From: Trueperaceae bacterium
GTDB lineage: Bacteria; Deinococcota; Deinococci; Deinococcales; Trueperaceae
NCBI GenBank assembly: GCA_965215565.1
Contig: CBDCDZ010000004.1
Span: 2,720,001-2,784,000, forward strand
DNA length: 64,000 bases
Reading direction: 5' to 3'
Shown here: in pieces, positions 284 through 54,725 of the stretch
Layout: each line of letters starts with the position of its first letter
Position numbering within the stretch: the first letter of the stretch is position 1
Position numbers and translations under genes: made by a program
Notes under the pieces: generated by a model
Databases searched by the model: none
What the model was told of the DNA's origin: nothing
Seen by the model: the letters and a program-made list of their open reading frames with translations, nothing else

Positions 284-539
284 TAACGGTTCCAAGACAT
301 ACTGAGACAGATGAGCGCTTTCCGTAGGCTTTCGCCAAAGGCGGGAGACGGAAGTTTTGGCAACGCTAAAGGCGTCATCACCAAACGTGCGTGCTACGTT
401 TCTGAAAGCTGCTCCGCGGAAGCGAGCAGTCTGAAAGCCCGCAGGGACGCAAGTTTGCTGCCTAGTAACGCCACTTCGAACAGTGAGAACATTTCAAACT
501 AGCTCCGAACGTTAGTGAGACAGACTTTGATACCTGCTA
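284..539 (-). mobile_element. TAGC-ended MITE-like dispersed repeat, copy with several internal inserts
   Basis: Reverse complement starts TAGCAGGTATCA and ends GCGCTCATCTGTCTCAGTATGTCTTGGAACCGTTA, nearly identical to the end of copy 54542-54725. Confidence 0.75.
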
Positions 540-540
540 C

Positions 541-653
541 TACAGCGGTTAGCAGAAGTACTGAGCTTGAATCACGCAGGTATCATCTCATGATGTGCGT
601 GCTGCACAGTGTTTTATCTCGTGAGATTGGCTCAAACCAGATGATACCTGCTA
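541..653 (-). mobile_element. TAGC-ended MITE-like dispersed repeat, minimal ~110-bp copy
   Basis: Perfect GCAGGTATCATCT/AGATGATACCTGC stem; close match to 17034-17144. Confidence 0.8.
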
Positions 654-746
654 TACATAAACTCCGTTATGGAATTTTGCTTTCCTGGAGGGAAACTTCG
701 TAACCAGCAAACGCTTCGGGTTGGCTAGCTGGACCTTATCTGAAAC

Positions 747-764
747 AAGGGGTTGAAACCCCTT
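747..764. repeat. REP-like palindrome AAGGGGTTGAAACCCCTT
   Basis: Same palindrome recurs at 40058-40081. Confidence 0.6.
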
Positions 765-847
765 ATCGTCGCGTGAAGACAGCAGAAGGAGGGCGGCATT
801 CGACTTTTACGTTTCGCCGCGTTCTATCCTCGCTGTTCTATCCTCAC

Positions 848-2134
848 TCAGCCCGACAGCCCCCGCTCACGCGCCCACACGACGGCTTCGGCGCGGGTGT
901 GTACGCCCAACTTCTCATAGACGCGCGTCACGTAGTTGCGCACGGTCTGTTTGGCGATGCCCAGGTCCTCTGAAATCGCCTCGTTGGAGTGACCCTGCGC
1001 CACGCGCTCTAGCACTTGGCGTTCGCGCTTGGTCAGCTCAGAGACCATCTTGGGGTCAAGCTCGCCGGCTTGAAGCTGCGTGAGCTTTTCAACCACCGAG
1101 CGGCTGAACCAGGCGGTATCTTGCATGACCGTGTTGATAGCTTGCATCAGTTCCTCTTCGCTCTGCTTGCGCTTAGTGATGTCGTAAAACATATGCAACA
1201 TACCGTTTTTGCCGTTGAGCGCGATGATTTCGGTAGAGGACAAGATATTGCGTATATCGTCGTGTTTGGTGCGTATATGCAGCTCGACCTCACGGTACGC
1301 GCCCTTGTCGTCCGTCGCCTGCCGAATCGTTTTCTGGTCTTCGGCGGACGCCCACAAGCCTAGCGCCTCGCTCGTGCGCCCTAGCGCCTCATCATGAGCG
1401 TAGCCCGTGAGCCGCTCAAAGGCGCTGTTGACCTCTAGGAGCGTTCCGTCCTCTAAAGAGGTGATGATCGCAGCAACGGGACCGATGCGAAAGGCTTGGC
1501 GGAAGCGGAGTTGGGAGCGCCTGAGCGCCTCCTCCATCTCTTTGCGTTCAGAGATGTCGCGCAGCCCCCAGCGCAGGGTCACCATATCACCCTCTTTAAC
1601 CTGCACCACCTTGACTTCGACGGTGGGCGCTCGCTCTTCACGCTGCATTTTAAGTTGCAACTCCCAGCGTTCGGGCTGCGCCGCTTCCACCTCTTCCTCT
1701 CGCCGCGCCAGTCGCGCTAACGCCTGGCGAAAGTCGGGTTGGGCGCTGCTACGCAAGTAGACTGACAGAGGTTTGCCGCGCAAGTAGTCAGTCGGTTTGC
1801 CTAGAAGACGCTCGGCGGCGCGGTTCGCCTCGCGAATCACGCCCGAGGTATCCGTGACAAGGTAGCCGTCCGGCGCGAACTCGAAGAGGTCGCGGTAGCG
1901 CTGGCGCTCGCGCTCTAATCCCTCTTGCGCCTGGATGAGCGCCTCGTTTTGCTGCGTCAACTCTTCCTCAGCGACTTGAAGCTCCTCTAAGGTAGTCGAA
2001 AGCTGCTCGTATACCTCTAAGTCGGCAAGTACGGGGTTATCCGTGCGGTCTTTCAAGGTGGCGATGTAGCCCTGCAATTTTTCGATGCGTTTGGTAAAGC
2101 CGGTAGTCACGGTTTTACAGTGTCCCTTCCGCAT
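848..2134 (-). CDS. Coiled-coil + PAS-PAS + LuxR-type HTH transcriptional regulator
   Basis: Two PAS-like segments (FEFAPDGYLVTD; FRIGPVAAIITS) and C-terminal LTKRERQVL...GHSNEAISEDLGIAKQTVRNYV LuxR motif; no receiver domain. Confidence 0.85.
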   Translation of the reverse strand: MRKGHCKTVTTGFTKRIEKLQGYIATLKDRTDNPVLADLEVYEQLSTTLEELQVAEEELTQQNEALIQAQEGLERERQRYRDLFEFAPDGYLVTDTSGVIREANRAAERLLGKPTDYLRGKPLSVYLRSSAQPDFRQALARLARREEEVEAAQPERWELQLKMQREERAPTVEVKVVQVKEGDMVTLRWGLRDISERKEMEEALRRSQLRFRQAFRIGPVAAIITSLEDGTLLEVNSAFERLTGYAHDEALGRTSEALGLWASAEDQKTIRQATDDKGAYREVELHIRTKHDDIRNILSSTEIIALNGKNGMLHMFYDITKRKQSEEELMQAINTVMQDTAWFSRSVVEKLTQLQAGELDPKMVSELTKRERQVLERVAQGHSNEAISEDLGIAKQTVRNYVTRVYEKLGVHTRAEAVVWARERGLSG

Positions 2135-2217
2135 ATCTCCCTGGGGTCATCCTAGAACTTCTATAGTTTCCTATAAGAAAGTGTAGCGTCTTTTACGGTT
2201 TAGAACTAGACGTTTGC

Positions 2218-2559
2218 TTACGTTTCTTTAGGTACATCTGTACTCTCTTCAGCATCTAAGTCAGCATCTAAACCCGCAGCCGAGTCGGGCCTAGAATCGG
2301 TCTCTAGCTCATCTAACTTAGCCACTTTCGCCTCAGTCTCGTGGTGTTCGTCGTGGGCGTCGTGGAGGGTCTGCTCGAAGCCGTGGGACTGGTCCTCGAG
2401 TTTATGAATCCCCGCTTCCGCGCGTTCGATCGTCGTTTCCAACCTCTTTGTACTCTTTTTTGCCCTAGCGACTTCCGCCTCGAGCTTCTGCGCCAACGCT
2501 TCTACCTCTTGCGCTTTCGCCTCTGCTTCCGCCGCCTCGCTTTTGTCACGCTCGTCCAT
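2218..2559 (-). CDS. Small acidic coiled-coil protein
   Basis: E/A/K-rich heptads; overlaps cheR stop with a GGGGG SD-like sequence upstream. Confidence 0.6.
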   Translation of the reverse strand: MDERDKSEAAEAEAKAQEVEALAQKLEAEVARAKKSTKRLETTIERAEAGIHKLEDQSHGFEQTLHDAHDEHHETEAKVAKLDELETDSRPDSAAGLDADLDAEESTDVPKET

Positions 2560-4450
2560 TTGCCGCCCCCTCTTCCATAAGCAGAATAACCCCCCGCAAA
2601 TCGTTGTCCAGCGCGTCGAAGCTCGTACAGGTCACGCGGCACTGAAATGTTCTGCCGCGCCGATTGAGCGCCTTTAATACGACCTCTTCGTGTTTGGACC
2701 TATCCGTTAGACAAGCCCGTACGGGCGCTTTTAGGGCGTCCACATCGACGCCAATATCCAAGGTGAAGAGCGAACGCCCCGCCACCTCGTCGGCGCGTAG
2801 CCCCCACAGGTCTTCGGCGCGGGCGTTCCAGATATAGATATTGAACTGATAGTCCAGGACGATGACCGCCGCGCGCAAACTGCCTAAAATGGACTCCAAA
2901 AAGATGTTTAAGCGGTCCACCTCTTCGGTGCGGCGGCGCATCTCTTCGTTCATCGTCTCAAGCTCTTCGTTAGTGGACTGCATCTCCTCGTTCATCGTTT
3001 CAAGCTCTTCGTTAGTGCTCTGCATCTCTTCGTTGGTGGTCTCCAACTCCTCCACCGTAGACTGAAGCTCTTCGTTGGTGGTCTCTAGCTCTTCGTTGGT
3101 GGACTGAAGCTCTTCGTAGGCGGTCTCTAGCTCCGTGTTGGACAGCTCGAGGCTGTTCTGTAAGCGCTTGTGTACGCTCACGTCGCGAAAGAGGATGCTG
3201 ACGCCTAGCGCTTTTATCCCGTTGCCAGAGCCGTTGCCGCCATTGACCAGCGGGACGATCTGCACGTCCAAGTGGAGCACGTCGCCTTCGGAAGCGTACT
3301 CGAGGCTGCCCAAGTGAATAAGCTCGCGCGTCTCCAGCACGCTGTCGATATGGGTGCGCAGTTCGGTGGGCTGATAGGAGAGCCTGAGATCTTGAAAGTT
3401 GCGCCCGATGTCCTCGTCGGAGATATCAAAGAGGGTGCGGGCGCGGGTATTGGCGAGCGCGAGCCGCCCTCTGGCGTCCACCACAATTTGCGCTTCGGGC
3501 GACACGTTAAAAGCAACCTCGCGCAGCCGCACCTCTTGCGCCACCCACCGCCCCCCCTCTTCGCCGCCCGCTTGGGTCAGCGTGAGGAGGCGTTCGCGCA
3601 AGCTCCCACTTTCGGACTTCGTGAAGAGCCGGTGCTTGAGGCTGAGCGGCTTAAAGCGCTCCGAGCGCGAGAGCATCGTCTCGGCTTTGCCCAAAAAGAG
3701 CGTGCCGCCCTCCTTGAGCGCGAAGTGAAAACGCGCCAAAACGCGGCTCTGCAGTTCGCGGTTAAAGTACATCAGCGTGTTGCGGCAGACCAAGAGGTCG
3801 AGCTGCGAGATGGGCGCGTCGCTCACTAAGTTGTGCCGCCCGAAGATCACAGAGCGGCGCAAGTCGCTCCGAAAGACGTAGCTGCCCGAGGCGTACTCGA
3901 AGTAGCGCTCCAAGAGGTCCGCGTCCACATCCGCGACCCTATCCGCGCTATAGACTCCCCCCCGCGCACGCACGAGGTCTTCCTCGTCGATATCGGTGGC
4001 GTAAATCTTGACCTGTTTGCGAAAGGCGTTCGCGCCCAGCGCCTCGGCGAGCAAGATGGCGAGCGTGTACGCCTCTTCGCCCGTCGCGCAGCCCGCACTC
4101 CAGGCGCGAATGGGCCCATCCGCCTTTTGCGCCACAAGCGGCGCGATGACCTCTTCGTCAAGCGCGCGCCACGCCGCCTCGTTGCGAAAAAAAGAGGTCA
4201 CGTTAATCAGGACGGTATTGAAGAGCAAATCGAACTCTTCGGGGTGGACCTCCAAATAGTCGAGGTAGTCACTGAACGATTCCACCGCGACGACTTGCAT
4301 CCGCCGCTCGAAGCGCCGCATCAAAGAGGTGCGCTTGTAGCCCGTAAAGTCGATGCTGCGCTTGACGTTTAAGTACTCGAGCAAGTCCTCAAACGCCGCT
4401 CTATCCTGGGCTTGCACCTTATCGTTTTCTGGACCGTCAAAGGCGCTCAC
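2546..4450 (-). CDS. cheR: CheR-type methyltransferase fused to PAS - coiled-coil - PAS
   Basis: INVTSFFRN, WSAGCATGEEAYT, YATDID and LLVCRNTLMYF CheR motifs; EELQSTNEELETT repeats. Confidence 0.9.
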   Translation of the reverse strand: MSAFDGPENDKVQAQDRAAFEDLLEYLNVKRSIDFTGYKRTSLMRRFERRMQVVAVESFSDYLDYLEVHPEEFDLLFNTVLINVTSFFRNEAAWRALDEEVIAPLVAQKADGPIRAWSAGCATGEEAYTLAILLAEALGANAFRKQVKIYATDIDEEDLVRARGGVYSADRVADVDADLLERYFEYASGSYVFRSDLRRSVIFGRHNLVSDAPISQLDLLVCRNTLMYFNRELQSRVLARFHFALKEGGTLFLGKAETMLSRSERFKPLSLKHRLFTKSESGSLRERLLTLTQAGGEEGGRWVAQEVRLREVAFNVSPEAQIVVDARGRLALANTRARTLFDISDEDIGRNFQDLRLSYQPTELRTHIDSVLETRELIHLGSLEYASEGDVLHLDVQIVPLVNGGNGSGNGIKALGVSILFRDVSVHKRLQNSLELSNTELETAYEELQSTNEELETTNEELQSTVEELETTNEEMQSTNEELETMNEEMQSTNEELETMNEEMRRRTEEVDRLNIFLESILGSLRAAVIVLDYQFNIYIWNARAEDLWGLRADEVAGRSLFTLDIGVDVDALKAPVRACLTDRSKHEEVVLKALNRRGRTFQCRVTCTSFDALDNDLRGVILLMEEGAANGRA

Positions 4451-5076
4451 GGGGTTCTCTCAATGGGTTGGCCGGCGTCGGAATCGACCCTTGAAGAGGT
4501 CAGCTCGAGCAGTTTCGCCGCGAGTGCCTCCAGGGGCAGCACGAAGTCCACCGCGCCCGTCTCAATCGCCGCTCTGGGCATCCCGAAATGTTGCGCGCTC
4601 GCCTCGTCTTGCGCCAGGGTCACGCCGCCTTTCTCCTTGACGACTTTGGTACCATTTTTGCCGTCGCGGCCCGTACCCGAGAGCACCACCGCGATGACCT
4701 CTTGCGCGTAGACCGTTGCCGCTGACTCGAAGAGCGCGTCCGCCGAGGGGCGCACGTACTGAACTTGAACCGTGTGCGTCAGGGTGAGCCTCCTTTTATC
4801 TGTCACTAATACGTGAAAGTCCGGCGGCGCACAGTAGACCGTTCCCGCCTGGAGCGTGTCGCCCTCTTCGACCTGCTTCACGTGCATGTCCGTATAGCGC
4901 CCTAGAATTTCTGCCATCCGGCTGCGGTGGTCTGGCGAGAGGTGCAGCACGATGACGAGCGGAGCGGGGAAGCTCTCGGGCAGGTGCGAGAGGAGCGTTT
5001 CTAACGCCACGAGCCCCCCCGCCGACGCTGCAACAACAACAAGGCGGGACGCGGGCTCAGACGGTGCGTTGTTCAT
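4447..5076 (-). CDS. cheB: Stand-alone CheB methylesterase (no receiver domain)
   Basis: AASAGG, VLHL, RPSAD, LSGTGRDG and GMPRAAI motifs; Ser-His-Asp triad intact. Confidence 0.92.
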   Translation of the reverse strand: MNNAPSEPASRLVVVAASAGGLVALETLLSHLPESFPAPLVIVLHLSPDHRSRMAEILGRYTDMHVKQVEEGDTLQAGTVYCAPPDFHVLVTDKRRLTLTHTVQVQYVRPSADALFESAATVYAQEVIAVVLSGTGRDGKNGTKVVKEKGGVTLAQDEASAQHFGMPRAAIETGAVDFVLPLEALAAKLLELTSSRVDSDAGQPIERTP

Positions 5077-5158
5077 AGATACAGTATGACAGGTAAAGAG
5101 GTAGAAGGGGCTCGAGTTGGACGAAGTTCACGGGCGTGTAGCGCTGAAAAATAGCCCG

Positions 5159-5233
5159 TCAGCCTGTCAGCTAGTTAGCATCTCAGGTTTTTAGTCTTTC
5201 CTAACTAGCTGAAGTGCTGAGATGCTGACTAGC
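5159..5233. repeat. Degenerate inverted heptamer-type repeat (GCTAGTTAGCATCTCAG...CTGAGATGCTGACTAGC)
   Basis: Imperfect long hairpin directly after the carboxylase stop; similar to 41402-41468. Confidence 0.5.
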
Positions 5234-5235
5234 TT

Positions 5236-6906
5236 TTACACCTGAAATACGCCGACTTTCAGTTCCTCCATCTCCGCATTCTGCGCACAAGCGTCCAACG
5301 CTCGGATAAGTCTGTCTCTAGTCTCTAAGGGCAAGATCACCTCATCCACCCAGAGCCGCGCCGCCGCGTAGCGGATGTCCAGAGCGCGGTCAAAGTCGCC
5401 GCGAATCTGCTCGTACAAGGTAGCAATCTCTTCGTCGTCGGGCTCTTTGCCTGCACGTTTAAGCTGCGCTGCCTGAATGTCCAGAATCGTTTTCGCGGCC
5501 TGCTGACCGCCCATCACGCTGTACTTGGCGCTCGGCCACGCGAAGATAAAGCGCGGCGCGTACGCCTTGCCGCTCATGGCGTAGTGCCCCGCGCCGTACG
5601 AACCGCCCAAAATAACGCTGAGACGCGGTACAACGCTGTTCGAGACTGCGTTGACCATCTTCGCGCCGCGCCGGATGATGCCCTCGTGTTCGCTCTCGCG
5701 CCCGACCATAAAGCCGTTGACGTCGTGGAGGAAGATTAAAGGAATTCCCATCTGATTGCAGTTGAGAATAAAGCGCGCCGCCTTGTCCGCCGCGTCGCCG
5801 TAGATGACGCCGCCGACTTGGAGCTTCCCCTGCGACTTCACAGCAGTCTTCTGATTCGCTACAATGCCGACGGCGTAACCGCCCAGCCGCGCCGTCCCGC
5901 AGACAATCGTCTTGCCGAATTTGGCTTTGTACTCGTCGAAGGTGGAGCCGTCTACGAGTCGTCCAATGACCTCGCGCACCTCATAAGGACGCTTGCCCCC
6001 TTCGGGTGGCACGATGCCCAAGAGGTCTTGCGGCTTGAGCTTGGGTTCTTTGATCTCTTCCCTGTCCTTCGCCCAGGGCGCTAACTTGGCGGGCGCGTAC
6101 GTCCCTGCTAGGCTGCGCAACCTCTTTAAGGCGCTCTCGTCGTCGGGCTCGTGATAGTCCACGGTCCCCGCGATCTCCGCGTGCATCGCCGCGCCGCCCA
6201 AATCCTCGCTGCTGACCTCTTGCCCAATGGCGGCTTTGACCAGTGCCGGGCCTGCCAGATAGAGCCCCGAGCCCTCCGTCATGATGAGCGTGTCGCACAT
6301 GACGGGCAGGTACGCCCCGCCCGCCACGCAGTTCCCCATGATCGCCGCCATCTGCGGGATGCCCAGCGCGCTCATGCGGGCGTTGAGGTAGAAGACGCGC
6401 CCGAAGTCGTCCTGGTCAGGGAAAATCTCGTCTTGCATCGGCAGATACACGCCCGCTGAATCCACGAGGTAGATCGTCGGTAGGTGATTTTCCAAGGCGA
6501 TGGTCTGCGCCCGAATCACCTTTTTCGCCGTAATCGGAAAGAACGCGCCCGCCTTGACCGTGGCGTCGTTCGCGACGATCAGCCAGTCGCGCCCCGCCAC
6601 CTTGCCGATGCCTGCCACCGTTCCACCAGCAGGCGCACCGCCGACCTCTTCATACAACCCGTCGCCCGCAAAGGTCATCAGTTCGTCGAACGGCGTGTCC
6701 TTGTCGATCAACTTGGCAATGCGCTCCCTCGCCACCAAACGGTTCTTGCTGTGCTGCCGCTTGACGGCTTTCTCGCCGCCGCCCTTCGCCACTCGTTCAC
6801 GCTCTTTTTGCAAGCCTGAAGTGTGCTCCGCCCAAGACCTCTTCTGCGCGTGAAAGGGGTCGTTGCGACGCTCTTCTAGGGAGAGGTTGGTCTCGAGCTT
6901 ATCCAC
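5236..6906 (-). CDS. Acyl-CoA (methylcrotonyl/propionyl-CoA) carboxylase, carboxyltransferase beta subunit
   Basis: NDATVKAGA, YLVDSAG, GNCVAGGAY and GSYGAGHYAM motifs. Confidence 0.9.
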   Translation of the reverse strand: MDKLETNLSLEERRNDPFHAQKRSWAEHTSGLQKERERVAKGGGEKAVKRQHSKNRLVARERIAKLIDKDTPFDELMTFAGDGLYEEVGGAPAGGTVAGIGKVAGRDWLIVANDATVKAGAFFPITAKKVIRAQTIALENHLPTIYLVDSAGVYLPMQDEIFPDQDDFGRVFYLNARMSALGIPQMAAIMGNCVAGGAYLPVMCDTLIMTEGSGLYLAGPALVKAAIGQEVSSEDLGGAAMHAEIAGTVDYHEPDDESALKRLRSLAGTYAPAKLAPWAKDREEIKEPKLKPQDLLGIVPPEGGKRPYEVREVIGRLVDGSTFDEYKAKFGKTIVCGTARLGGYAVGIVANQKTAVKSQGKLQVGGVIYGDAADKAARFILNCNQMGIPLIFLHDVNGFMVGRESEHEGIIRRGAKMVNAVSNSVVPRLSVILGGSYGAGHYAMSGKAYAPRFIFAWPSAKYSVMGGQQAAKTILDIQAAQLKRAGKEPDDEEIATLYEQIRGDFDRALDIRYAAARLWVDEVILPLETRDRLIRALDACAQNAEMEELKVGVFQV

Positions 6907-6973
6907 GGCGAACTCTGAGTATTCTGTCAGCTAAAAAATGAGGTACGTCATGAGCGTAGCGAACTAGGAAGTA

Positions 6974-7050
6974 GCGAGCAATGAGCAACGAGCAGTGAGT
7001 GAAGGGCTTTTGATTTTCACTCACTGCTCGTTGCTCGGAACTCATTGCTC
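6974..7050. repeat. Inverted array of tandem heptamers (nnGAGCA)n...(TGCTCnn)n
   Basis: GCGAGCA ATGAGCA ACGAGCA GTGAGTG followed by its reverse complement. Confidence 0.7.
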
Positions 7051-7216
7051 TTTTGAAGACCCTTCGCAAGCTCAACGCCCTACTCGCGCGAGCAGGATGA
7101 CAGCCTGCTCCTTCTGTTCGTAAATACTCCACATTCAAAACCTGTCCAACGTGCCACAAAACCCGTCTATCCGTCACTTTTCGCCTCCATTTTGTGCCTC
7201 AGTGTACGCCAACACC

Positions 7217-7433
7217 TGTGGATAAGTCCGCTCTAAACTGTGGATAACTTTGACGCTTGACAAAGGGGTGACAAATTTGTTAGGCGATTGTAAATTCTTC
7301 ACAATGCTAGAAAATGCGTCACAGACGGCGTTTCTGACTTCTCGAGCGCAGTTTTTACGTACTGGTGGGGCTTCGTGCGTTATCCACAGGCTGTGGCTAA
7401 CCTGTGGATAACTGTGGATAACCCTGTGGACCA
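7217..7433. promoter_or_regulatory. DnaA-box cluster
   Basis: Perfect TTATCCACA/TGTGGATAA at 7217, 7239, 7380, 7403 and 7413; degenerate boxes at 7392 and 7425. Confidence 0.8.
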
Positions 7434-8047
7434 TGCCGGGAGCTTGCGGCTCGCTTAGCGGCGCGTACAAAGTCCTGTATCTTGACTTTTCCCTTGATAC
7501 CGGGGCTCAGCTCCACGCCCGAGGCGACATCTACCGCGTAGGGCTGCAAGATATTCACCGCCTCCGCGACGTTCTCAGGCGTCAAGCCGCCCGCTAAGAT
7601 GAAGCGCGGAAGACCTTTTAAGTGTTCGGCTAGGGACCACTCGAACCGCTCGCCGCTCCCCGGTTGGAGCCCGTCTATCAAAAATGCGTCCGCTGGAAAG
7701 TCCTGCAACCTCTCCACGTCAAGCCCGGCGTGAAACGAGACCGCCCGGATAACCTGAATGTGAGGCCGGAGTTCAGCGGCGTACGCGGCGCTCTCCTGTC
7801 CGTGAAGTTGGACCGCTGCAAGCTTGAGCGTCCGCGCAGCTTCCAAAACCTCACCCAGAGGCGCGTTGACGAAAACGCCGACACGGGAAATAAACGGACC
7901 CAACACGCTGCTGATCTCGGCGGCTTGTCCTAACGTTACGAGGCGCTTAGACCGCTCCGCAAAGATGAGCCCAACCGCGTCCGCGCCCGCTTCTTCCGCC
8001 GCTAGAGCGTCCTCGACTCTGGTGATGCCGCAAATCTTGATTCGCAT
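7397..8047 (-). CDS. trpF: Phosphoribosylanthranilate isomerase
   Basis: MRIKICGITR, VQLHGQES, LAGGLTPENV and VDVASGVE; true ATG at 8047. Confidence 0.93.
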   Translation of the reverse strand: MRIKICGITRVEDALAAEEAGADAVGLIFAERSKRLVTLGQAAEISSVLGPFISRVGVFVNAPLGEVLEAARTLKLAAVQLHGQESAAYAAELRPHIQVIRAVSFHAGLDVERLQDFPADAFLIDGLQPGSGERFEWSLAEHLKGLPRFILAGGLTPENVAEAVNILQPYAVDVASGVELSPGIKGKVKIQDFVRAAKRAASSRHGPQGYPQLSTG

Positions 8048-8048
8048 A

Positions 8049-9617
8049 TTAAAACCGCTGCACAATCTCCACCTCGACCCCATACGCCTCCGCGAACAGC
8101 TCGCTACGCAAGTTTGCCTCTTGCACCTCAGTCGAAACGTCCGTGTCAGCAAGTGCCTCGATCTGCACGTATCCCTTGCCGACGTGACACCTGACCTCTT
8201 TGACGTTCTGCGCCTTGCTCCGCTCCAAGTACTCCGCTAAGCGCAGCAGCGCCGCGAGCTTGGCGAGGCGTTCCATGTCGCCGTCTTTTAAGAGGTCGTC
8301 TAAGCCCTCGTCCTCGGGCGAATCGTCGTCGCGGTGGTAGCGCACCAGCAGGGCGATGAGCGCCTGCTCGCGCTGGGTGTAGCCCGGCAAGGGGCGGTTC
8401 ATCATGATGTAAAAACCGTGCTCCTCGTGGTCGTCGTACGCAACCGCCATACCGATGTCGTGGAGGCGTGCGCCCGCCGCCAAGAGGTCTCGCTCGGCGT
8501 CGCCGTAGCCGTGCAGCGTGCTGAGCTGATCGAAGAGGTCTAGAGCGAGCTTCTGGACGTGATCATTGTGGGACTCGTTGTCGTAGTAAAGCCGCTCCAA
8601 GTTGCGCACGCTAAAGTCGCGGAGTTCTTCTGCGCTCTCGAACAGGGGTGGGTCTCTGTCCAAGAGGTAGCCGTAGAAGAGCCCCTCGCGCAGGCCCTGG
8701 TCACAGATGACGTAGCTGGATGCGCCCGTGATCTTGAGCACCTCCAGAGCCGTCACCGCGCCCGCCGTGATGATGTCCGCGCGGTCTGACTTGAGCCCGG
8801 AGACGTCGTCGCGGATGTCTTCAACTTTCATGTCCAAGAGGTCTTCGGTGATGTCCTCCAAATCGTCTTTGCTCAAAACGTAGTGGTGCACGAGGTCGCC
8901 GGAATGAGAGTCGCGGTCGATTTGGATTTTGGCGAGGTTGCGGAGCGTGCCGCCCATGCCGATAAGAGGCAGGTCTTCGGCGCAGCCTTCGAAGTCGCTC
9001 ATCAGCCCTCTGACGTGCTTTACAAGCGCCTTGACCTCTTTTTTCTTGGGCGGATCGGAGGTCAAGAACTGCTCGGTCATGCGCAGCGCGCCGATGGTGT
9101 AGGAATTCGCTTGGGTCATCTTGCGCCCCTCGAGCTTGCTCATCTCAGCGCTGCCCCCGCCGATATCGAAGACGTAAGCGTCGCTAAAAGGGAGGCTGTT
9201 CGCGGCGGCAACGGCTTCGTAATACGCCTCTTCCTCGTCGGACAAGATGCGCGGCTCGAGGCTGGTGCGGCTCCTCACCTCGTCTAAAAAGTTCTCGCCG
9301 TTAGACGCCTCACGCACGGCGCTCGTCGCGGTGATGCAGACCTCTTCGACGCCCGCCGCCTTGCAGTAGGCGTCGAAAGTCGTGAGCGCCCGCATCGCCC
9401 TCTCTGCAGCGTCCACGCGCAGCACGTCAGCCTTGCCCATCCCTTCAGCCAAACGCACCAGTTGGCGGATTTCGTCGATCTCGTGGTAGGAGTGATTCTT
9501 TCGGTACTCGAACAGCACTAGCTTGCTCGTGTTCGAACCTAAGTCGATGATAGCGACCTCTTTGACATCCGAGGTGCGGGACTTTCTCGACGATTTCTTC
9601 TTCTGATTTGTGCTCAT
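8049..9617 (-). CDS. ppx: Ppx/GppA exopolyphosphatase family protein
   Basis: IDLGSNT, ATSAVREASN, FDIGGGSAE, GLREG and HD-like LHDIG C-terminal domain. Confidence 0.88.
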   Translation of the reverse strand: MSTNQKKKSSRKSRTSDVKEVAIIDLGSNTSKLVLFEYRKNHSYHEIDEIRQLVRLAEGMGKADVLRVDAAERAMRALTTFDAYCKAAGVEEVCITATSAVREASNGENFLDEVRSRTSLEPRILSDEEEAYYEAVAAANSLPFSDAYVFDIGGGSAEMSKLEGRKMTQANSYTIGALRMTEQFLTSDPPKKKEVKALVKHVRGLMSDFEGCAEDLPLIGMGGTLRNLAKIQIDRDSHSGDLVHHYVLSKDDLEDITEDLLDMKVEDIRDDVSGLKSDRADIITAGAVTALEVLKITGASSYVICDQGLREGLFYGYLLDRDPPLFESAEELRDFSVRNLERLYYDNESHNDHVQKLALDLFDQLSTLHGYGDAERDLLAAGARLHDIGMAVAYDDHEEHGFYIMMNRPLPGYTQREQALIALLVRYHRDDDSPEDEGLDDLLKDGDMERLAKLAALLRLAEYLERSKAQNVKEVRCHVGKGYVQIEALADTDVSTEVQEANLRSELFAEAYGVEVEIVQRF

Positions 9618-9636
9618 CGGCTCAGTATGGCATATG

Positions 9637-9903
9637 TAGCAGGTATCATCTGGTCAGCGACACTCTCACTGTGCGCGTTGCTGACTAGCACGCACATTGT
9701 GACAGCAGGTTCCTTCGGAAGCTTCGCGCAATCAAAGTCTGTCTCACTGGCGTTCGGAGCTGGTCAGCTACACTTTCACTAAAAAGAACATCGCCTAGCA
9801 CGCACTTAATTGTGATGAAATTCCGCTATTGCTGCGCAATGAGATCTGCGAAGAAGTGTTGCTTCGCATGACTTCGTCCAAGCAATGATAAGTGGAACTG
9901 CTA
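9637..9903 (+). mobile_element. Two fused TAGC-ended repeats (truncated copy plus insert-bearing copy)
   Basis: TAGCAGGTATCATCTGG at 9637, second start CAGCAGGT at 9703, end GGAACTGCTA at 9903. Confidence 0.75.
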
Positions 9904-9966
9904 TAAGTACTACCAACTTTAGAAAGACCTTTTAGGACGGGCACTTTACCCCGCGCGAGAAACTTT

Positions 9967-10308
9967 TCAAAACACCGCTTTGAGATGTTCCAGATCATGC
10001 TCTTTTCGTGTACCTACTAAGAGAATGGCGTCGAAACGTAGGGGCAAGTCGTCTCGTTCGTACGTTTCGGTGAGGTAGTGTAGCGCGGTGTGGCGCAGCT
10101 TGGCGATCTTCGAGCGGCTGATAGCGTCTGCGGGCGTGCCGTAGCGCGTATTCTTCCGCTGCTTGACCTCGACGAAGACGAGCACGTCGCCCTCTTGCGC
10201 GATGAGGTCCACTTCGCCCCGGCGACAGGTGTAGTTGGTCTCTAAGACTCTATACCCTGCGCCCTCCAGATAGCGCCGCGCTACCTCTTCTGACCAGTGC
10301 CTTATCAC
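9967..10308 (-). CDS. YraN (UPF0102) family endonuclease-like protein
   Basis: GEVDLIA...VFVEVKQR and LRFDAI motifs. Confidence 0.88.
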   Translation of the reverse strand: MIRHWSEEVARRYLEGAGYRVLETNYTCRRGEVDLIAQEGDVLVFVEVKQRKNTRYGTPADAISRSKIAKLRHTALHYLTETYERDDLPLRFDAILLVGTRKEHDLEHLKAVF

Positions 10309-10423
10309 GCGCTCAAACTAGCGGTGTACCGCGTTTTGTGCCGGGCGTCGCGAGAAGACTGTAGTGAGGGAAGCCAATATCTGTTTGCGCACAAAACGGG
10401 ACACCTTAAATCACCCCTTGAGC

Positions 10424-10816
10424 CTAGGTGGGCTCGATCTCGAGCCGCTCCGCATCCGCCCAGAGCCCTTCTAAATCGTAAAACTCTCGCGCGTCCGGGC
10501 TCATGACGTGCACGACGATATAGCCGTAGTCCATCAAAACCCAGCGCCCCGAGGGCCCCTCGATTGCTTTAGGCACCGTGCCCGCGCCTTTAAGCTCCTC
10601 CTTGACGCCGTCCTCCATCGCTTTGAGCTGCAAACTCGACTCGCCCGAGGCGACGATGAAATAGTCGAGCGTTTCTGAGGCGGTGCTCAGGTCCATCACG
10701 ACGATGTCTAGGGCGCGTTTGTCGTCTAAAGCGTTGACGATGAGTTGGACTTCGCGGGGAACGTCCGCGCTGATGTTGGCTGTGTCTGTTTGTGGTGTGA
10801 CGTGTTCGGTATCTAT
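10424..10816 (-). CDS. rsfS: Ribosome silencing factor RsfS (Iojap), probable ATA start
   Basis: DYFIVASG, WVLMDYG and REFYDLEGLW; conserved IVNALDDKRALDIVVMDL lies upstream of the ORF-track start; GAGGAGG SD precedes ATA at 10814-10816. Confidence 0.88.
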   Translation of the reverse strand: MDTEHVTPQTDTANISADVPREVQLIVNALDDKRALDIVVMDLSTASETLDYFIVASGESSLQLKAMEDGVKEELKGAGTVPKAIEGPSGRWVLMDYGYIVVHVMSPDAREFYDLEGLWADAERLEIEPT

Positions 10817-10856
10817 CTCGAGCGCCTCCTCAAAAATCCGTGCGAAGATGGTTGAC

Positions 10857-10873
10857 TTCTGTTCTCAACATAA
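10857..10873. promoter_or_regulatory. 17-bp RDRM-like palindrome TTCTGTTCTCAACATAA
   Basis: Imperfect palindrome upstream of rsfS resembling the Deinococcus radiation/desiccation response motif. Confidence 0.35.
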
Positions 10874-10937
10874 CCTAAACATAACCTAGAAAAACGTACG
10901 CTTGCGTGTTTATAAGCGTGTTTTTGCGAGTGTGCCG

Positions 10938-12209
10938 TCACTCCGCTTGCGCCAACTGCACGTAAAAAAACTCTCGTGCGTCTCGCCCTAAGACGATCTC
11001 GATATCTGCGCCGATGTCGCGCTCAAAGCGGTCGATCTGCTGCACGCCCAAGCCCAAGAGGTCAGCGTAGTAGTTCGCGGCTGAAAGCGTGCGTCCGGTG
11101 GTGAGCACTTGCGACGAAGGGACGCCCTGCGCCTCCGCCACGCTGAGCCGCGCCTCCGGGACGCCCAGCCCCACGAGGATGCGCTTCGCCTCATTTGCCA
11201 AGGCGGGCACGCCGCTACGGTTTGAGATGCGCACGCTCGCCTCAGGCATCCGGGTGAGTTCGCGCGCCTCGCCGCCGAAGTGTTCGGCTAGAAACGCCTC
11301 GGTGCGCTGCCGGTTCGTCTCGACGTAGCGTCCACTGCCCTCGACGTCGTTGGTGGGCAAGGTGGCGGCGTAGATTTCCAGGTTGGGAAGGCGGGGGATG
11401 AGCTGTGAGACCAGCGCGGGGCTGACATTAGTGTCGACTTCCTCGAGGTATGTAGAGGCGAGCTTGGGCAGCGTCCCTACCGCCCGCACGTTCTGCTCTT
11501 TGAGCTTAGCGAGCAGCGCGCGCGCCAGCGTCTTCACGTTGTCGATTCGGTCGATGTCGCCGCGCAGGGTCTGGCGGTAGCGGATGAACCCGGCTGCCTC
11601 TTCACCATTTAGATGCTGAAAGCCCGGCTGCAGATCAATGGTAAGCCCGGCCGCTTGGTCCTGCCAGTACATCCGGTAGGGCACGTCTAAGTCCACACCG
11701 CCTACCGCGTCCACCAATTTTTCGAAGATGCCGATGTTGATGACTGCGTAGTAATCCACAGGGACGTTGAGAAGCTCCGAAACCGCCCGCCGCACGTGCT
11801 CGGCGCGGTTCATGCCGCCGAAAATCTCGGGTCCGTAGGTGTAAATCTCGTTGATGCCGATGTCGTATTGGGGCAGCAAGAGGTCTCTGGGGATATTGAC
11901 CATGTAGACCTTATTGCCGACGATATTGACAAAAATGACCGTGTCGGTGCGAAAGCCGAGTTCCGCTTTGGTGGTGTAGGCGCGCTGCAGCTTGCCATCT
12001 TTCCAGACCATTGGACCGGCAGGCTGATAGTTGTAGTCGCGCCCCGCCACCACGAAGCTCGCCTGGAACGCGCCGTCCGGGTTGACGAGGTCTCTTTGCT
12101 CGTCGCTCAAAACCGTGCGCTGCGCGCCTTGGGTGAGCCAGAAGCCCGCGATACCCCCGAGCCCGATGAGCAGCCCTATGACCTGAACGAAACGACTGAA
12201 GTTACGCAC
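10938..12209 (-). CDS. LCP (LytR-CpsA-Psr) family protein with LytR C-terminal domain
   Basis: N-terminal TM helix, RTDT, IPRD, LVDAVGGV and FIRYR. Confidence 0.88.
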   Translation of the reverse strand: MRNFSRFVQVIGLLIGLGGIAGFWLTQGAQRTVLSDEQRDLVNPDGAFQASFVVAGRDYNYQPAGPMVWKDGKLQRAYTTKAELGFRTDTVIFVNIVGNKVYMVNIPRDLLLPQYDIGINEIYTYGPEIFGGMNRAEHVRRAVSELLNVPVDYYAVINIGIFEKLVDAVGGVDLDVPYRMYWQDQAAGLTIDLQPGFQHLNGEEAAGFIRYRQTLRGDIDRIDNVKTLARALLAKLKEQNVRAVGTLPKLASTYLEEVDTNVSPALVSQLIPRLPNLEIYAATLPTNDVEGSGRYVETNRQRTEAFLAEHFGGEARELTRMPEASVRISNRSGVPALANEAKRILVGLGVPEARLSVAEAQGVPSSQVLTTGRTLSAANYYADLLGLGVQQIDRFERDIGADIEIVLGRDAREFFYVQLAQAE

Positions 12210-12220
12210 GTTGCCCTAGG

Positions 12221-12826
12221 TTAAGCTAACCCGTTGGACCGGGTGCAAATCTCCCGGTAGACCTTCATCGTCGCAGGGTGGACCGCTTTGCCCTTGGAAC
12301 GCAGGTAGTTCACCTTGGAGTTGACCGCCCGCTGATACGCCCGGAAGAGGTTGTGCATCGCCAACTCGCGGATATCCGCGTTGACGCCGCGCCCAGGCTC
12401 GGACACGTCGGCGATATAGACCGCCATGCCGATGCGGTTGTCGTGTGAGACACCGAACACGTGCCCCTCAACCGAGTCCAGGACGCGCTCGTCGTTGACG
12501 CCCCACCCCTCGATGATGCGCCTGCCCGCGCGCCCGTGTACCGCTAAGGGGTGTTTTTTCTCCAACTCCGTTTCGGGGGGCGCGAGCGCGAACATCTTCT
12601 CGGGTGGGAGGTCTCGCGCGACGTCGTGCAGCGTCGCCGCGAGGCTCGTCGCCCGAATCTCATCCTCAGAGAAGTCGTTCGCTCTAGCAATCGTCTCGGC
12701 GAGGATAGCGACGCGCACGATATGCTCGAAGCGCTCCGCGCTGACCATCTCCTTGACGCGCGCGCAGTAGGGTTGCACGCTAGTTCTGGTGCAGGGGCTG
12801 TTGACGGTAAAGAGGGTTTTTTGCAA
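12221..12826 (-). CDS. yqeK: YqeK-like HD-domain Ap4A hydrolase
   Basis: RFEHIVRV, LHDVAR and YIADVSEPGR; lies downstream of nadD. Confidence 0.8.
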   Translation of the reverse strand: MQKTLFTVNSPCTRTSVQPYCARVKEMVSAERFEHIVRVAILAETIARANDFSEDEIRATSLAATLHDVARDLPPEKMFALAPPETELEKKHPLAVHGRAGRRIIEGWGVNDERVLDSVEGHVFGVSHDNRIGMAVYIADVSEPGRGVNADIRELAMHNLFRAYQRAVNSKVNYLRSKGKAVHPATMKVYREICTRSNGLA

Positions 12827-13373
12827 GGTAGCTCTCCACGGGTTCGGGAACGAGATAGCGAACGCTCTCTCTATGGGCTAAGCGGCGGCGGACCTCGGTG
12901 CTCGAGACCTCCCACAGCGGCGTGTCTAAGATACGGACTCTCTCCTTGAAATAGGGTTCAACCTCATTGACCGTGTAGTTCGGGCGGCTCAGCGCCACCA
13001 CCGAAACAGACGACACGAGTTCGCGGGCACGGTGCCAACTGCTGATCTCTCTGTAAGCGTCCGCGCCCGTAATGAAAAAAAGCTCGTCGTTGGGGCGCTC
13101 CGCGCGGACCTTGGAGACCGTATCAAAGGTGTAAGACGCGCCTGTGCGCTCGATCTCTAGGCGGCTCACGTGAAACTGCGGGTGGGCGTTCGTCGCGAGT
13201 AAAAGCATCTCGAAACGCGCTTCGGGGGCAGCGGCAGCCTCTTTGTGAGGGGGTGTTTTCGCGGGGATGAACCACAGCGCGTCAAGCCTCAGCACCTCTA
13301 GCGCACGCTGCGCCACCATGAGGTGACCGGCGTGTACAGGATCAAAGCGTCCGCCGAAAAGACCCAATCTCAC
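12780..13373 (-). CDS. nadD: Nicotinate-nucleotide adenylyltransferase
   Basis: GGRFDPVHAGH, PPHK, SYTFDT, FITGAD and VSSTEVR. Confidence 0.93.
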   Translation of the reverse strand: MRLGLFGGRFDPVHAGHLMVAQRALEVLRLDALWFIPAKTPPHKEAAAAPEARFEMLLLATNAHPQFHVSRLEIERTGASYTFDTVSKVRAERPNDELFFITGADAYREISSWHRARELVSSVSVVALSRPNYTVNEVEPYFKERVRILDTPLWEVSSTEVRRRLAHRESVRYLVPEPVESYLAKNPLYRQQPLHQN

Positions 13374-13490
13374 CGTACGAGCCTCATCCTATAAACCTCA
13401 CTGTACAAACCTCTGCGTGATTCCCACAAAGCCCCCACCGCAAGAGTGTACCTCTTGGGGAAGGGGAGATGCGTGCAGGTATCACAATAC

Positions 13491-14777: not shown

Positions 14778-14803
14778 TGCGTAACCTCTCTACCTCCGGG
14801 CAG

Positions 14804-14835
14804 AAAAAAGACGCGAGGTTGGTCCCCGCGTCTTT
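14804..14835 (-). terminator. Intrinsic terminator-like hairpin between rpmA and obg
   Basis: AAAGACGCG...CGCGTCTTT stem followed by a T-run on the minus strand. Confidence 0.6.
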
Positions 14836-14850
14836 CGCTTAAAAGTTTTC

Positions 14851-15129
14851 TTAGTCCGCTGCGATAGCAGGCGAATCTTGGTTCTCGATGCTGATAAAGC
14901 GCCCTTTAGAGCCTTTGTTGTGGAACTTTACCACGCCGTCACGCATCGCGAAGAGCGTGAAGTCGTTGCCTTGCCCGACGTTCTTGCCGGGCTTGAATTT
15001 CGTGCCGCGCTGACGTACTAAAATATTGCCAGCCAGAACAACCTGTCCCTCGAAACGCTTGACGCCCAGGCGCTTCGACTCGCTGTCGCGTCCGTTTTTA
15101 GAACTGCCTACACCCTTCTTATGTGCCAT
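14851..15129 (-). CDS. rpmA: 50S ribosomal protein L27
   Basis: [24 protein letters not shown]. Confidence 0.98.
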
Positions 15130-15130
15130 T

Positions 15131-48122: not shown

Positions 48123-48297
48123 TAGCAGCGCAACGTGCTGAGATGCAATGTCGCAGGTCTCATCCTGCAATGTGAGAGCTAGTCGGTACTTTATCGGGTG
48201 AGAGCGTTTATGACCACCGCTGCTACGCAGAGACTTCGTGAACCGAACGCAGTGAGACAGACTTTGATTGAGCGAAGCTATACGAAGTAACCTGCTA
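48123..48297 (-). mobile_element. TAGC-ended repeat with inserts
   Basis: TAGC...GCTA ends; shares GTGAGACAGACTTTGAT module with copies at 284 and 9703. Confidence 0.75.
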
Positions 48298-48307
48298 AGA
48301 TAGCGCT

Positions 48308-52804: not shown

Positions 52805-52805
52805 T

Positions 52806-53951
52806 CTATTTCGTCAAGAGCGCCGTCAGGAGTGCCAAGCGGTCTAAGGTCTCTGTCACGCGGATGTGTTCGTAGCGGGCGTGCGGACCTCTGCCCGAGG
52901 AGCCTAAACCGTCCAGCGTCGGAACGCCCAACGCCGAGGTGAGGTTGCCGTCGGAGCCGCCGCCGACGACGGCGCTGTCCAAGCTAAACCCCAAGCCTTC
53001 CATCTTCTTTTTCGCCTCTTCAAAGAGCACCATATTTTGCTCCGTGGGCTCCATCGGCGGGCGGTTGAGCCCGCCTTCGATGTGGAGTTTGACGCGGCTG
53101 TCTTTGGGCTCGTAGCCGTAGACCGCCCTCTCGACGCGCTTGCCCTCGCCATCCTCGAGCGCCCTTAAATCTACCTCTGCAAACGCCTCCTCGGGGATGA
53201 CGTTGCCGACGCTGCCGCCACGCGCCACCGTGAGGTTGACGCTCGTTTGCGCTTCGTCGTCGTTTAAGGATTCCACAAAGAGGAGAAAATGGGCTAACTC
53301 GCGCAGCGCGGACGCGCCGTCTTCGGGGTTATTACCCGCGTGGGCGCTCTGCCCCTCAAAGGTGACGAAGAACGCGCCGACGCCCTTGCGCCCGACTTTG
53401 AGCGCGCCGTCGTCGCGTCCGGGCTCTAAGACGAGGGCGCGGTCGTGCGTTTGGGCGAGGGACTCGATGATGGTTCTCGAGTGCTTGCTCCCCACCTCTT
53501 CGTCCGAGGTGATGAGCAGCGTGACCGGACCTTTAGGTTCCAAATCTAGCTCTTCTAGCATCGCAACGGCGTGGATGCCCGCCGCGATGCCCGCTTTCAT
53601 GTCGAGCGTACCGGGACCGTAGAAGAGGTCGCCCTCGCGCTTGACAGGCATCTTCTCCAGCGTGCCGACGGACCAAACGGTGTCGGCGTGGGTCAAGAGG
53701 AGCGTGGAGGTCTCCCCAGGGAAGTCTTTGCGGGCGACGAGCTGATCGCCTACCTCTTCCTTGGCGACGCGCTCGACGCGCCAACCTCTTGCGCTAAGGT
53801 CATCTTCCAGATGGCCGATAAGCGCGTCCACTGCCGCTTTCTGTCCGGTGGGAGATTCGAAGCTTGCCAAAGTTTTCAGGGTTTCTAAATAGGCGTCTTC
53901 TCGCGCGTGCGCGGCGTTTCTCAGGTTGGACTCGCTATGTTCAGAAGTCAT
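52806..53951 (-). CDS. M20 metallopeptidase (glutamate carboxypeptidase-like)
   Basis: HADTV, DMKAG, SDEEVGS, SAHAG and GGGSDG. Confidence 0.9.
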   Translation of the reverse strand: MTSEHSESNLRNAAHAREDAYLETLKTLASFESPTGQKAAVDALIGHLEDDLSARGWRVERVAKEEVGDQLVARKDFPGETSTLLLTHADTVWSVGTLEKMPVKREGDLFYGPGTLDMKAGIAAGIHAVAMLEELDLEPKGPVTLLITSDEEVGSKHSRTIIESLAQTHDRALVLEPGRDDGALKVGRKGVGAFFVTFEGQSAHAGNNPEDGASALRELAHFLLFVESLNDDEAQTSVNLTVARGGSVGNVIPEEAFAEVDLRALEDGEGKRVERAVYGYEPKDSRVKLHIEGGLNRPPMEPTEQNMVLFEEAKKKMEGLGFSLDSAVVGGGSDGNLTSALGVPTLDGLGSSGRGPHARYEHIRVTETLDRLALLTALLTK

Positions 53952-54061
53952 TGGAGTACCATAACAGGGAAGAGGTGCGGCTTGGGTTTGGTAGCTAGGG
54001 GAGTGGGAAGTCAAAAGCAATGGGTGAAAAGCTTTTGCCGATACCTACTAAACGCTCGCTC

Positions 54062-54412
54062 TCAGTCCGTCCCTACCTTGTTTTCTTCCTCACGCTTCGC
54101 GCGCTCTGCTAAATACTCGCGCCAGAGCGTCTCAGCAAGTACGCGCACGGCGGGCTCACGGGTGGTGCGGGCGTAGGAATAGCCCATGCGCAAGTCGCCC
54201 TCTGCCGACGCCGCGCCCAAGCGTTTAGCAACTCTATAGCGCGACAAGTAGACCTGTGACAAGAGCGCGTTGCGCATCCGCTGCGGCTTGACCGCGTGGA
54301 GGTCGCGCAGGGCGGCGCTAAAGGCGTCCATCGCGCCCTCTGAATTCCCCTCGTTCACCAGCGCCTCGCCGCGCTTAAAGTGCTTCGCCGCGTTGTAGAG
54401 CAGTTCACGCAT
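54062..54412 (-). CDS. Hypothetical helical (TPR-like) protein
   Basis: 116-aa ORF with alpha-helical composition. Confidence 0.55.
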   Translation of the reverse strand: MRELLYNAAKHFKRGEALVNEGNSEGAMDAFSAALRDLHAVKPQRMRNALLSQVYLSRYRVAKRLGAASAEGDLRMGYSYARTTREPAVRVLAETLWREYLAERAKREEENKVGTD

Positions 54413-54541
54413 CAGACCTTTCTAACATGCTACCCCAAGGCGAGTATACCGCCCTCTCCTCACCTGCCACGTCGTTGTGGCGTTTCGGAGAATGTGGAGA
54501 GCAGAATACAGAAAGCAGAATAAAAACCTTTAATCTTCTTT

Positions 54542-54725
54542 TAGCAGGCATCATCTGGTTTGAGTGCGCGAAGCGATGCGAAGCAACACTCTCACTATGC
54601 AAAGCGGTGTTCAACACGCACATTCGGAGATGAAATCCCGCAACGGCAGGGCGGCCTGCCCGTAACGCTAGTCCTTGCGGACAGAGATCTGCGCTCATCC
54701 GTCTCAGTATGTCTTGGAACTGCTA
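54542..54725 (+). mobile_element. TAGC-ended repeat with 21-nt and ~50-nt inserts
   Basis: TAGCAGGCATCATCTGG...CTTGGAACTGCTA. Confidence 0.82.

Follow-up and report, generated by a model that had tools for sequence, protein, structure and literature searches.

Small dispersed repeats (SDRs) are 21-27 nt long, heptamer tandem repeats serve as their targets in Nostoc, and SDR5 enters HIP1 between bases 3 and 4. These repeats, SDR5 included, were reportedly described in Nostocaceae by Elhai et al. in 2008. According to the pertinent passages of the literature, SDRs insert precisely at a specific site (PMC4390886; SDRs are also treated in PMC5861425), SDR5 measures 21 nt and its function is called unknown (PMC13756078), and a citing paper reports that no HIP1-rich cyanobacteria other than Nostocaceae have such 21-nt elements. 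Plasmid pNPUN01 of Nostoc punctiforme contains four 21-nt inserts in HIP1 (one with a mismatch) and one more at a near-HIP1 site. To the question of how 21-nt SDR elements move, which dates from 2008, the Trueperaceae genome analysed here, that of an uncultured Deinococcus relative, adds a second phylum and hundreds of recent, alignable events with precise ends, from which the strand and the rules for structure and target can be read.

The window, i.e., the whole stretch of 64,000 nt that was analysed, had originally been predicted to harbor an SDR-like ultra-small mobile system of a Deinococcota lineage, and precise, repeated site-specific insertion, nesting and empty orthologous sites bear this prediction out. 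The best explanation of the data, with a probability of roughly 0.6 for the account as a whole, mechanism included, is that several families of gene-less mobile units of 17-27 nt, of the SDR kind, are at work.

The host MITE and its cargo in the window

The principal host is a miniature inverted-repeat transposable element (MITE), with terminal inverted repeats and a 3-bp target duplication, the latter seen at 140 of 227 copies. The empty MITE is 111 bp long, the length of 89 of the 227 copies, and the lengths of the remaining copies are quantised in clusters (131-136, 154-163, 177-186 and 197-207 bp), in agreement with the proposal that discrete inserts account for the length differences. Comparison with empty orthologues shows +114-bp indels for the MITE, which is absent from the three small contigs of G000. 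In G005 the analysis of MITE copies covered one locus, and the unpublished genome G255 carries no weight in any conclusion. No cognate autonomous IS with MITE ends was detected in G000 or in the examined parts of the related genomes G001 and G002; ISAzo13, considered as a source, was not found in the genus and has ends unlike those of the MITE. The MITE is the commonest carrier of the target motifs, and its own transposition multiplies filled copies. The proposed role of the MITE as a landing pad thus holds for the commonest target, but not for the sole one, given that units also occur outside the MITE.

The first copy in the window (284-539, minus strand, 256 bp, with an intact 3-bp duplication) has three sites filled: by a 25-nt family G unit that replaces one host base (503-527), by a family B unit at site B (399-467) whose tail holds two family E units (430-446, 17 nt, and 401-429, 29 nt), and by a family B unit at site D (319-369) whose tail holds a 27-nt family E unit (321-347). 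The family G unit had been taken for a 24-mer. Empty copies of a 110-bp subfamily lie at 544-653 and 17035-17144 (both minus strand), and an empty 111-bp copy at 39881-39991 (plus strand) has no MITE at the orthologous site of G001. Outside the MITE, a 23-nt family B unit (667-710, plus strand) has its loop split by an inverted 21-nt B unit (683-703), an element previously assigned to the MITE itself. A composite with two MITE starts (9637-9903, plus strand) includes the copy 9703-9903, which carries a 20-nt double-hairpin unit (9711-9730), a family G unit (9735-9759), a family C unit (tail 9818-9828) and an inverted family A unit (9860-9880); accordingly, the family G unit follows the 20-nt insert here and not, as had been stated, TATCA.

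Among the other plus-strand copies, 17292-17543 (252 bp) carries a three-level nest at site A (17315-17381, B within B within A), a B unit at site B (17407-17428) and a 52-nt family C composite (17450-17501); 36396-36698 (303 bp) combines nested A, tandem B plus a 17-nt E unit, and nested family C; 38915-39069 (155 bp) contains a B unit (38968-38990) in the loop of another (38963-39006); and 54542-54725 (184 bp) carries a family A unit (54565-54585) and a 52-nt family C composite (54632-54683). A degenerate copy has a 21-nt unit in its left-end motif (29694-29714, plus strand), with relatives elsewhere at the same site, and a second degenerate copy (48123-48298, minus strand) contains a family A unit in which both stems are changed and still paired (48269-48289) and a variant of family G (about 48240-48264). 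The copy at 60484-60563 (minus strand) is empty, whereas its G001 orthologue has inserts of 45 and 43 nt. The only Rfam match in the window is a tRNA. No RNA run containing the sequence is listed among the sequencing runs, and contigs from such runs, aligned to positions 1-18500, gave joints indistinguishable from other repeat copies.

All seven insert strings quoted with coordinates in the original prediction are present at those positions. The unit boundaries required adjustment: family B ends two bases later than proposed and often starts one or two bases later, hence 683-703, 17407-17428 and 38968-38990 inside 38963-39006, and the 21-mer at 54565, listed as separate from family B, shares one blueprint with it on the opposite strand.

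Structure, junctions and targets of the units

The units are mostly 20-25 nt long, with extremes of 17 and 27-29 nt. A strict family B scan yields 156 matches in contig C4 but 3 in a simulated sequence of the same length (order-4 Markov model), and tail-plus-stem counts exceed chance in families B (259 vs. 28), C (136 vs. 5) and A (60 vs. 0). The suggested preference for multiples of 3 is weak: 48 of 68 site A units have 21 nt and 18 have 22 nt, and the 58 site B units include 36 of 23 nt, 18 of 21 nt and 3 of 22 nt. The 112 distinct B units measure 23 (45), 24 (36), 21 (19), 22 (10) or 25 nt (2).

Families A, B and E form double hairpins with mostly G-N-A loops on one strand. All 19 distinct 21-nt family A units located by position have a G-N-A first loop, and 17 of them have a G-N-A second loop as well; at pair 4-10, 11 units have A-T and 7 have G-C. 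The first stem of family B consists of two pairs, and its first loop is G-N-A or G-N-N-A in 82 of the 112 distinct units, compared to 2 of 28 simulated ones; one subfamily with a different first loop is clearly mobile. Of 64 triloops, only G-N-A gives the stable DNA mini-hairpin, whose proven extra stability requires G-C stems; the corresponding RNA tetraloop has much lower stability (PMC13037366, section 2.3). Nearest-neighbor folding separates neither DNA from RNA nor the two strands. Nesting extends to three levels, and nested composites also occur as units in different host lineages.

The units enter fixed sites with exact ends and without target duplication. Families A, B and E enter 5′ of an A (on the hairpin strand), and families C and G substitute one target base. 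The base after the B unit is A in 71 of 92 contexts, and the one after the family A unit is A in 21 of 23 matches in four other genera, the search pattern not having required it. At the B junction N|A, as judged from sequence, N is G in 46, C in 23, A in 18 and T in 5 of the 92 contexts. No guide tetranucleotide is conserved at the targets in the tables of units and flanks.

Apart from the MITE, the targets comprise other repeats, the loops of the units themselves and unique intergenic sites. Occurrence outside the host repeat was found at non-coding sites; in gene bodies, in frame or otherwise, no unit was found. Seven of the 156 strict B matches overlap crude open reading frames, of which five look spurious; of the other two matches, one overlaps a stop codon and one lies upstream of a likely start, and in-frame modules were accordingly rejected. 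There is no replication-strand bias with the dnaA-based origin (18 of 41 non-MITE B units are on the leading strand); a bias with the GC-skew origin (p 0.03) vanished with the dnaA origin. Searches with the exact B pattern in named genomes returned one Trueperaceae match and four chance-like ones, none of 22 matches in viral contigs has the unit structure, and plasmid BLAST searches gave chance matches only.

History of insertion and possible mechanisms

Precise empty/filled orthologous pairs exist outside the MITE, for family B (C4:3038099), for family C (C4:4239174) and in heptamer repeats, where a 22-nt family has inserted, as well as within it (the copy at 60484 and G001). MITE hosts identical over 110 compared columns are seen both with and without a unit. 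On the host tree, 54, 55, 65 and 18 filled copies require at least 43, 41, 53 and 15 state changes, close to the shuffle expectation (48, 49, 56 and 17.5), counts that do not distinguish gain from loss. The scatter of the units over the host tree, together with flanks that, within 8 nt, agree with the lineage of their host in 104 of 119 comparisons (a biased test), points to repeated insertion rather than deletion from one long ancestor. Filled sites co-occur in MITE copies (odds ratios 3.7-6.2), so that part of the spread is due to the MITE carrying units along or to recombination between its copies.

The tree counts leave room for descent of all long copies from one long ancestor by deletion, or for hairpins arising in place by template switching, but as a general account this is refuted: a single site in near-identical hosts holds dozens of different units, another genus also has the empty 111-bp form, and identical units recur at unrelated sites as well as in other genera. 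Its probability is minimal. Lengths and sites are not random either, so that neither outcome named in advance as fatal to the prediction came true. If gene conversion or recombination had instead distributed a few ancestral insertions over the MITE copies, without any end-specific enzyme, the co-occurrence of filled sites would be expected, as would the single 52-nt composite that fills site C of 22 copies from different host lineages and the junction-adjacent base that shows the same change in many copies. This scenario is rather improbable in view of the flanks that follow the host lineage, the many unrelated non-MITE targets with empty orthologous sites outside any MITE, and the presence of the same units in both orientations and at several sites.

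A different route, in which a group II intron reverse transcriptase acting in trans copies short structured RNAs into DNA, would fit the precise insertion without duplication and the changed junction base of families C and G, both compatible with retrohoming chemistry; four copies of a group II-type reverse transcriptase are present in G001, and the four-base loop variants also conform to GNRA, the stable RNA loop. However, most loops are three-base G-N-A, which is the DNA rule, units between co-directional genes show no sense/antisense bias (12 vs. 10), and reverse transcriptases, present in the carriers G001 and G199 and in several non-carriers, were not found in the carriers G000 (99.99% complete, protein families scanned on all but its three small contigs), G002, G307, G323 and G018, which makes this route unlikely. 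The resident IS110 bridge recombinase could be suspected of yielding insertions as by-products: all seven near-identical IS110 copies of G000 sit in the MITE left-end motif, also targeted by families C and G and the 29694 unit, and each of the three genomes of the genus has IS110-family genes. Nevertheless, IS110 duplicates a two-base core and leaves the target unchanged, whereas insertion of C and G costs the target one base, and A, B and E enter at other sites; the units have no evident match to the IS ends, IS110 genes are common in non-carriers, and a 21-bp double-stranded circle is implausible, all of which renders this source highly improbable.

The reading in terms of several SDR-like unit families has an observed part, namely fixed ends without duplication, entry of A, B and E 5′ of an A, base replacement by C and G, composites, the MITE as carrier and other targets, which jointly is very probably correct. 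Its mechanistic part has about an even chance: the mobile form would be single-stranded DNA folded into two mini-hairpins whose loops are G-N-A and of which the 3′ one lies flush with the 3′ end. It would plausibly be closed into a dumbbell circle, and a strand-transfer enzyme acting in trans would excise and paste the units much as HUH (Y1) enzymes do. This enzyme might be an unrecognised chromosomal protein or a transient one lost from some carriers. One-base replacement, as in families C and G, is no HUH hallmark. Cleavage of single-stranded hairpin repeats at C|T or C|A is known for one HUH enzyme (PMC8266576). Against the HUH model stand the Y1/HUH searches, negative in G001 and G002, the missing guide tetranucleotide and strand bias, the 30 of 112 distinct B units whose first loop is not G-N-A, and the two-pair B stem without the required G-C. 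The single Y1/HUH domain of G000 is fused within a restriction-modification protein and carries a different palindrome; no cognate Y1 gene flanked by units was seen in G000, G001 or G002, nor any nuclease-type reading frame so flanked, excised circle or excision scar. In co-distribution tests on 5-22 hand-picked genomes, none of Y1 transposase (RAYT/TnpA in the original proposal), reverse transcriptase or IS110, put forward as candidates, tracks the units cleanly, and ISAzo13, DUF559 and four-helix-bundle proteins were likewise rejected. Small GIY-YIG genes are present in 5 of 5 carriers tested (carriers only), without flanking units.

Comparison with known small repeats

Like the bacterial MITEs Correia/NEMIS, RUP and Nezha, as far as these are covered in the relevant part of PMC3733652, the host repeat is short (111 bp), with short terminal inverted repeats, a 3-bp target duplication and +114-bp orthologous-site polymorphism; unlike them, it carries mini-elements and an IS110, and no cognate transposase was found for it. 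With REP/REPIN-RAYT and IS200/IS605 elements, as described in parts of PMC8266576 and PMC3116915, the units share short hairpins, absence of target duplication, strand-specific structure and a presumed cut 5′ of a fixed base. In contrast to REP/REPIN-RAYT, the units consist of two mini-hairpins, nest, lack the GTAG or CGTC tag and inverted doublets (unit and flank tables), and have no cognate Y1 gene adjoining, or in two of three carriers.

The closest resemblance is to SDRs, in unit size, precise site-specific insertion and heptamer tandem repeats as targets. The Trueperaceae system, in contrast, belongs to another phylum, uses other target motifs, includes a 17-nt unit and families with one-base replacement, has an active MITE as the main carrier and shows very recent activity. 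HIP1 is under-represented in the Trueperaceae genome (41 vs. 87 simulated), the split-HIP1 pattern is not above control, and SDR5-type insertion into HIP1 was thus not detected there. Nevertheless, in line with the predicted SDR analogy, family A has the same 21-nt blueprint as the Nostoc HIP1 inserts, a 2+9+1+9 double hairpin whose loops are G-N-A and whose 3′ end is followed by an A; a count by eye for the closest variants, aligned in register, gives 13 matches in 21 positions. It is a tentative possibility, on the doubtful side, that SDR5 and the Trueperaceae families belong to a single class of the smallest mobile DNA, as short as 17 nt and found across phyla, namely nuclease-resistant single-stranded dumbbells closed by G-N-A mini-hairpins and integrated 5′ of, or replacing, an adenine by a novel enzyme outside the known transposases, recombinases and reverse transcriptases. 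An enzyme capable of scarless insertion of a 21-nt oligonucleotide at a short motif would represent new chemistry, and possibly a tool.

The host repeat and its inserts

The Trueperaceae genome (G000; four contigs, 4.49 Mb, completeness 99.99%) contains 432 matches to the left end of the host repeat when searched with a profile of the 111-bp copy (window 39881-39991), of which 227 have a matching right end; the remaining 205 left ends, among them a 110-bp subfamily, degenerate copies and internal repeats, were excluded from the host tree. Among the two-ended copies, 140 are flanked by a 3-bp duplication and 5 by a 4-bp duplication; 89 are exactly 111 bp long, and longer ones step up by about 21-25 bp. 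Across 496 gaps between syntenic blocks that G000 shares with two relatives from the same genus (G001, 1.6 Mb covered; G002, 0.8 Mb), the repeat is present in G000 only (78 gaps), in the relative only (21) or in both (6), and several differences are clean +114-bp indels. The repeat, found in 5 of 41 genomes searched, is an active MITE; a cognate transposase was not found in G000 or in the examined parts of G001 and G002. A related MITE with its own hairpin insert polymorphism is present in a genome of another genus (G020; L014-L023), and a different element of ~104 nt is inserted at or near MITE site B at positions 3659256 and 4098976 of contig CBDCDZ010000004.1 (C4).

All seven strings quoted with coordinates in the original prediction are located exactly there, and the discrete inserts at fixed sites that it described are seen when long MITE copies are aligned to the closest empty copy (one without units), at host positions 23 (site A), 48 (B), 68-69 (C), 75-76 (D) and also 88. 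Family A units consist, on one strand, of 2 nt, a 3-bp hairpin, 1 nt and another 3-bp hairpin, 21 nt altogether. Family B (21-25 nt) follows this plan, but its first stem has two pairs and its second is longer; the foot of its first hairpin is the target of family E (17-29 nt), the 17-nt form of which is present in 30 copies across 24 contexts. Two further families, C (20-25 nt) and G (25 nt), depart from this plan and replace one target base. Nesting, also described in the prediction, reaches three levels (window 17315-17381). Unit lengths, proposed to be multiples of three, are not so bound, and the suggested check for in-frame units within genes found none inside gene bodies by crude ORF calls. 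The coding tandem repeats at window 2900-3154 (21-bp) and 58499-58603 (15-bp) are unrelated to the mini-elements.

Mobility and spread of the mini-elements

Three cases outside the MITE bear directly on mobility: a 21-nt family B unit with exact ends at C4:3038099, the orthologous site of which is empty in another genome; a family C unit at C4:4239174 that replaces one base relative to the empty orthologous site; and a 22-nt unit family in heptamer repeats, filled or empty between orthologous sites. Within the MITE, window copy 60484 lacks two inserts that its G001 orthologue has, and the empty form also occurs in another genus. On a host tree of 205 copies and 110 columns, which is poorly resolved and on which gain and loss are indistinguishable, the minimum numbers of state changes for 54, 55, 65 and 18 filled copies are 43, 41, 53 and 15, respectively, compared with 48, 49, 56 and 17.5 for states shuffled on the same tree. 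In 104 of 119 comparisons (variants with at least 4 copies only), the flanks within 8 nt resemble the empty relative of the copy itself more closely than they resemble other carriers, although this test sets a nearest neighbour against a mean and is biased towards that result. Filled sites co-occur within copies (odds ratios 3.7-6.2); therefore, MITE carriage or recombination contributes to spread. Filled copies are younger, with the 3-bp duplication more often intact (81/110 vs 55/95 empty copies). The predicted ultra-small mobile system, in the form of SDR-type mini-elements that move independently and site-specifically, is well supported (probability about 0.85).

A strict family B scan yields 156 matches, compared with 3 in simulated sequence. 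Of these, 115 are no more than 120 bp away from a match to the MITE, the proposed landing pad, and 41 lie elsewhere. Family B tail counts in the genus are 116, 69 and 88 for its three genomes; in the rest of the phylum, none of 298 genomes exceeds 11, and the reversed control rises to 13. For the family A core, a scan of 128 genomes of the family gives 56, 22 and 13 matches in the genus, compared with 8, 6 and 5 in G307, G199 and G323 (controls 0-2). The units of these last three occupy host repeats other than the genus MITE; the next base after matches outside the genus is A in 21/23. Among 19 metagenome matches, 6 are family A units that occupy the corresponding site in a related MITE, one lies in a different repeat and most others look like chance.

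Family-A-like double hairpins are also nested in other palindromic repeats of metagenome contigs and G018 (L223, L236, L293), and some other repeat families of C4 host further mini-element families; C4 also carries a 29-nt repeat that looks like CRISPR type I-E. Genes for PF05635 four-helix-bundle proteins are bordered by heptamer-type tandem repeats (L263, L264, L269), such repeats also being mini-element targets; the same pairing is found in cyanobacteria.

Search for the enzyme

Of the enzymes proposed for a co-distribution check, reverse transcriptase was not found in G000 or G002 (G001 has four copies), and the search for RAYT/TnpA gave a single Y1 domain in G000, within a 1322-aa restriction-modification protein (C4:3784711-3788676, minus strand; L024:3711-7676), with none in G001 or G002. 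This Y1/RAYT-like domain is internal and apparently keeps the HUH and tyrosine residues, and the gene encodes in frame a 24-bp palindrome abundant in the genome. IS110 genes are present in all three genomes of the genus but show no clean co-distribution with the units. The seven near-identical G000 copies (C4:638695-639891, with a 315-aa ORF and a ~170-nt 5' non-coding region, plus six others; L006-L012) all interrupt the MITE left-end motif at one and the same base, with a two-base core, and G002 has a 92% relative; IS110 elements are known to target repeats (PMC12288879). Among hand-picked genomes, none of the other families tested (ISAzo13, DUF559, four-helix-bundle, GIY-YIG) tracks the units.

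No replication-strand bias of the units was found. A DnaA-box cluster adjoining dnaA (C4:2668758-2668935), 0.48 Mb from the GC-skew minimum, is the likely oriC, and repeats resembling DnaA boxes are present at window 7216-7412. The absence of an enzyme today is compatible with a past or transient one; the best mechanism, to which we give even odds, would involve a single-stranded DNA intermediate processed by a strand-transfer enzyme.

Hairpin loops and relationship to known repeats

Loop 1 is G-N-A in all 19 distinct 21-nt family A units, picked by position rather than sequence, and loop 2 in 17 of them; a stem pair that is A-T in 11 units is G-C in 7 others, and the outer pair of stem 1 is frequently unpaired. 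In 112 distinct family B units, loop 1 is G-N-A in 75, G-N-N-A in 7 and neither in 30, compared with either form in 2/28 simulated matches. Among 64 DNA triloops, according to a review (PMC13037366), only G-N-A forms a stable, exonuclease-resistant mini-hairpin, the RNA tetraloop counterpart melting far lower, and this stability requires G-C stems, which the first stem of family B lacks. Folding programs gave no discrimination. The base 3' of family B units is A in 71/92 contexts, and insertion falls inside a small triloop in 25 of 125 contexts preselected for a following A, compared with 14 in shuffles.

A literature search covering few subscription papers found no account of such units beyond Nostocaceae, nor of the G-N-A rule. 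The units compare most closely with the SDRs of Nostocaceae (Elhai et al., 2008): 21-nt inserts of the SDR5 type in HIP1 motifs on the Nostoc plasmid pNPUN01 share the family A blueprint, including G-N-A loops and an A after the 3' end; no HIP1 excess was found in G000, and the units are therefore SDR5-like in working but not in target. With REP/RAYT systems, as far as the consulted parts of PMC8266576, PMC3116915 and PMC3733652 describe them, the units have the hairpin logic in common, but they possess neither the tag nor the gene.
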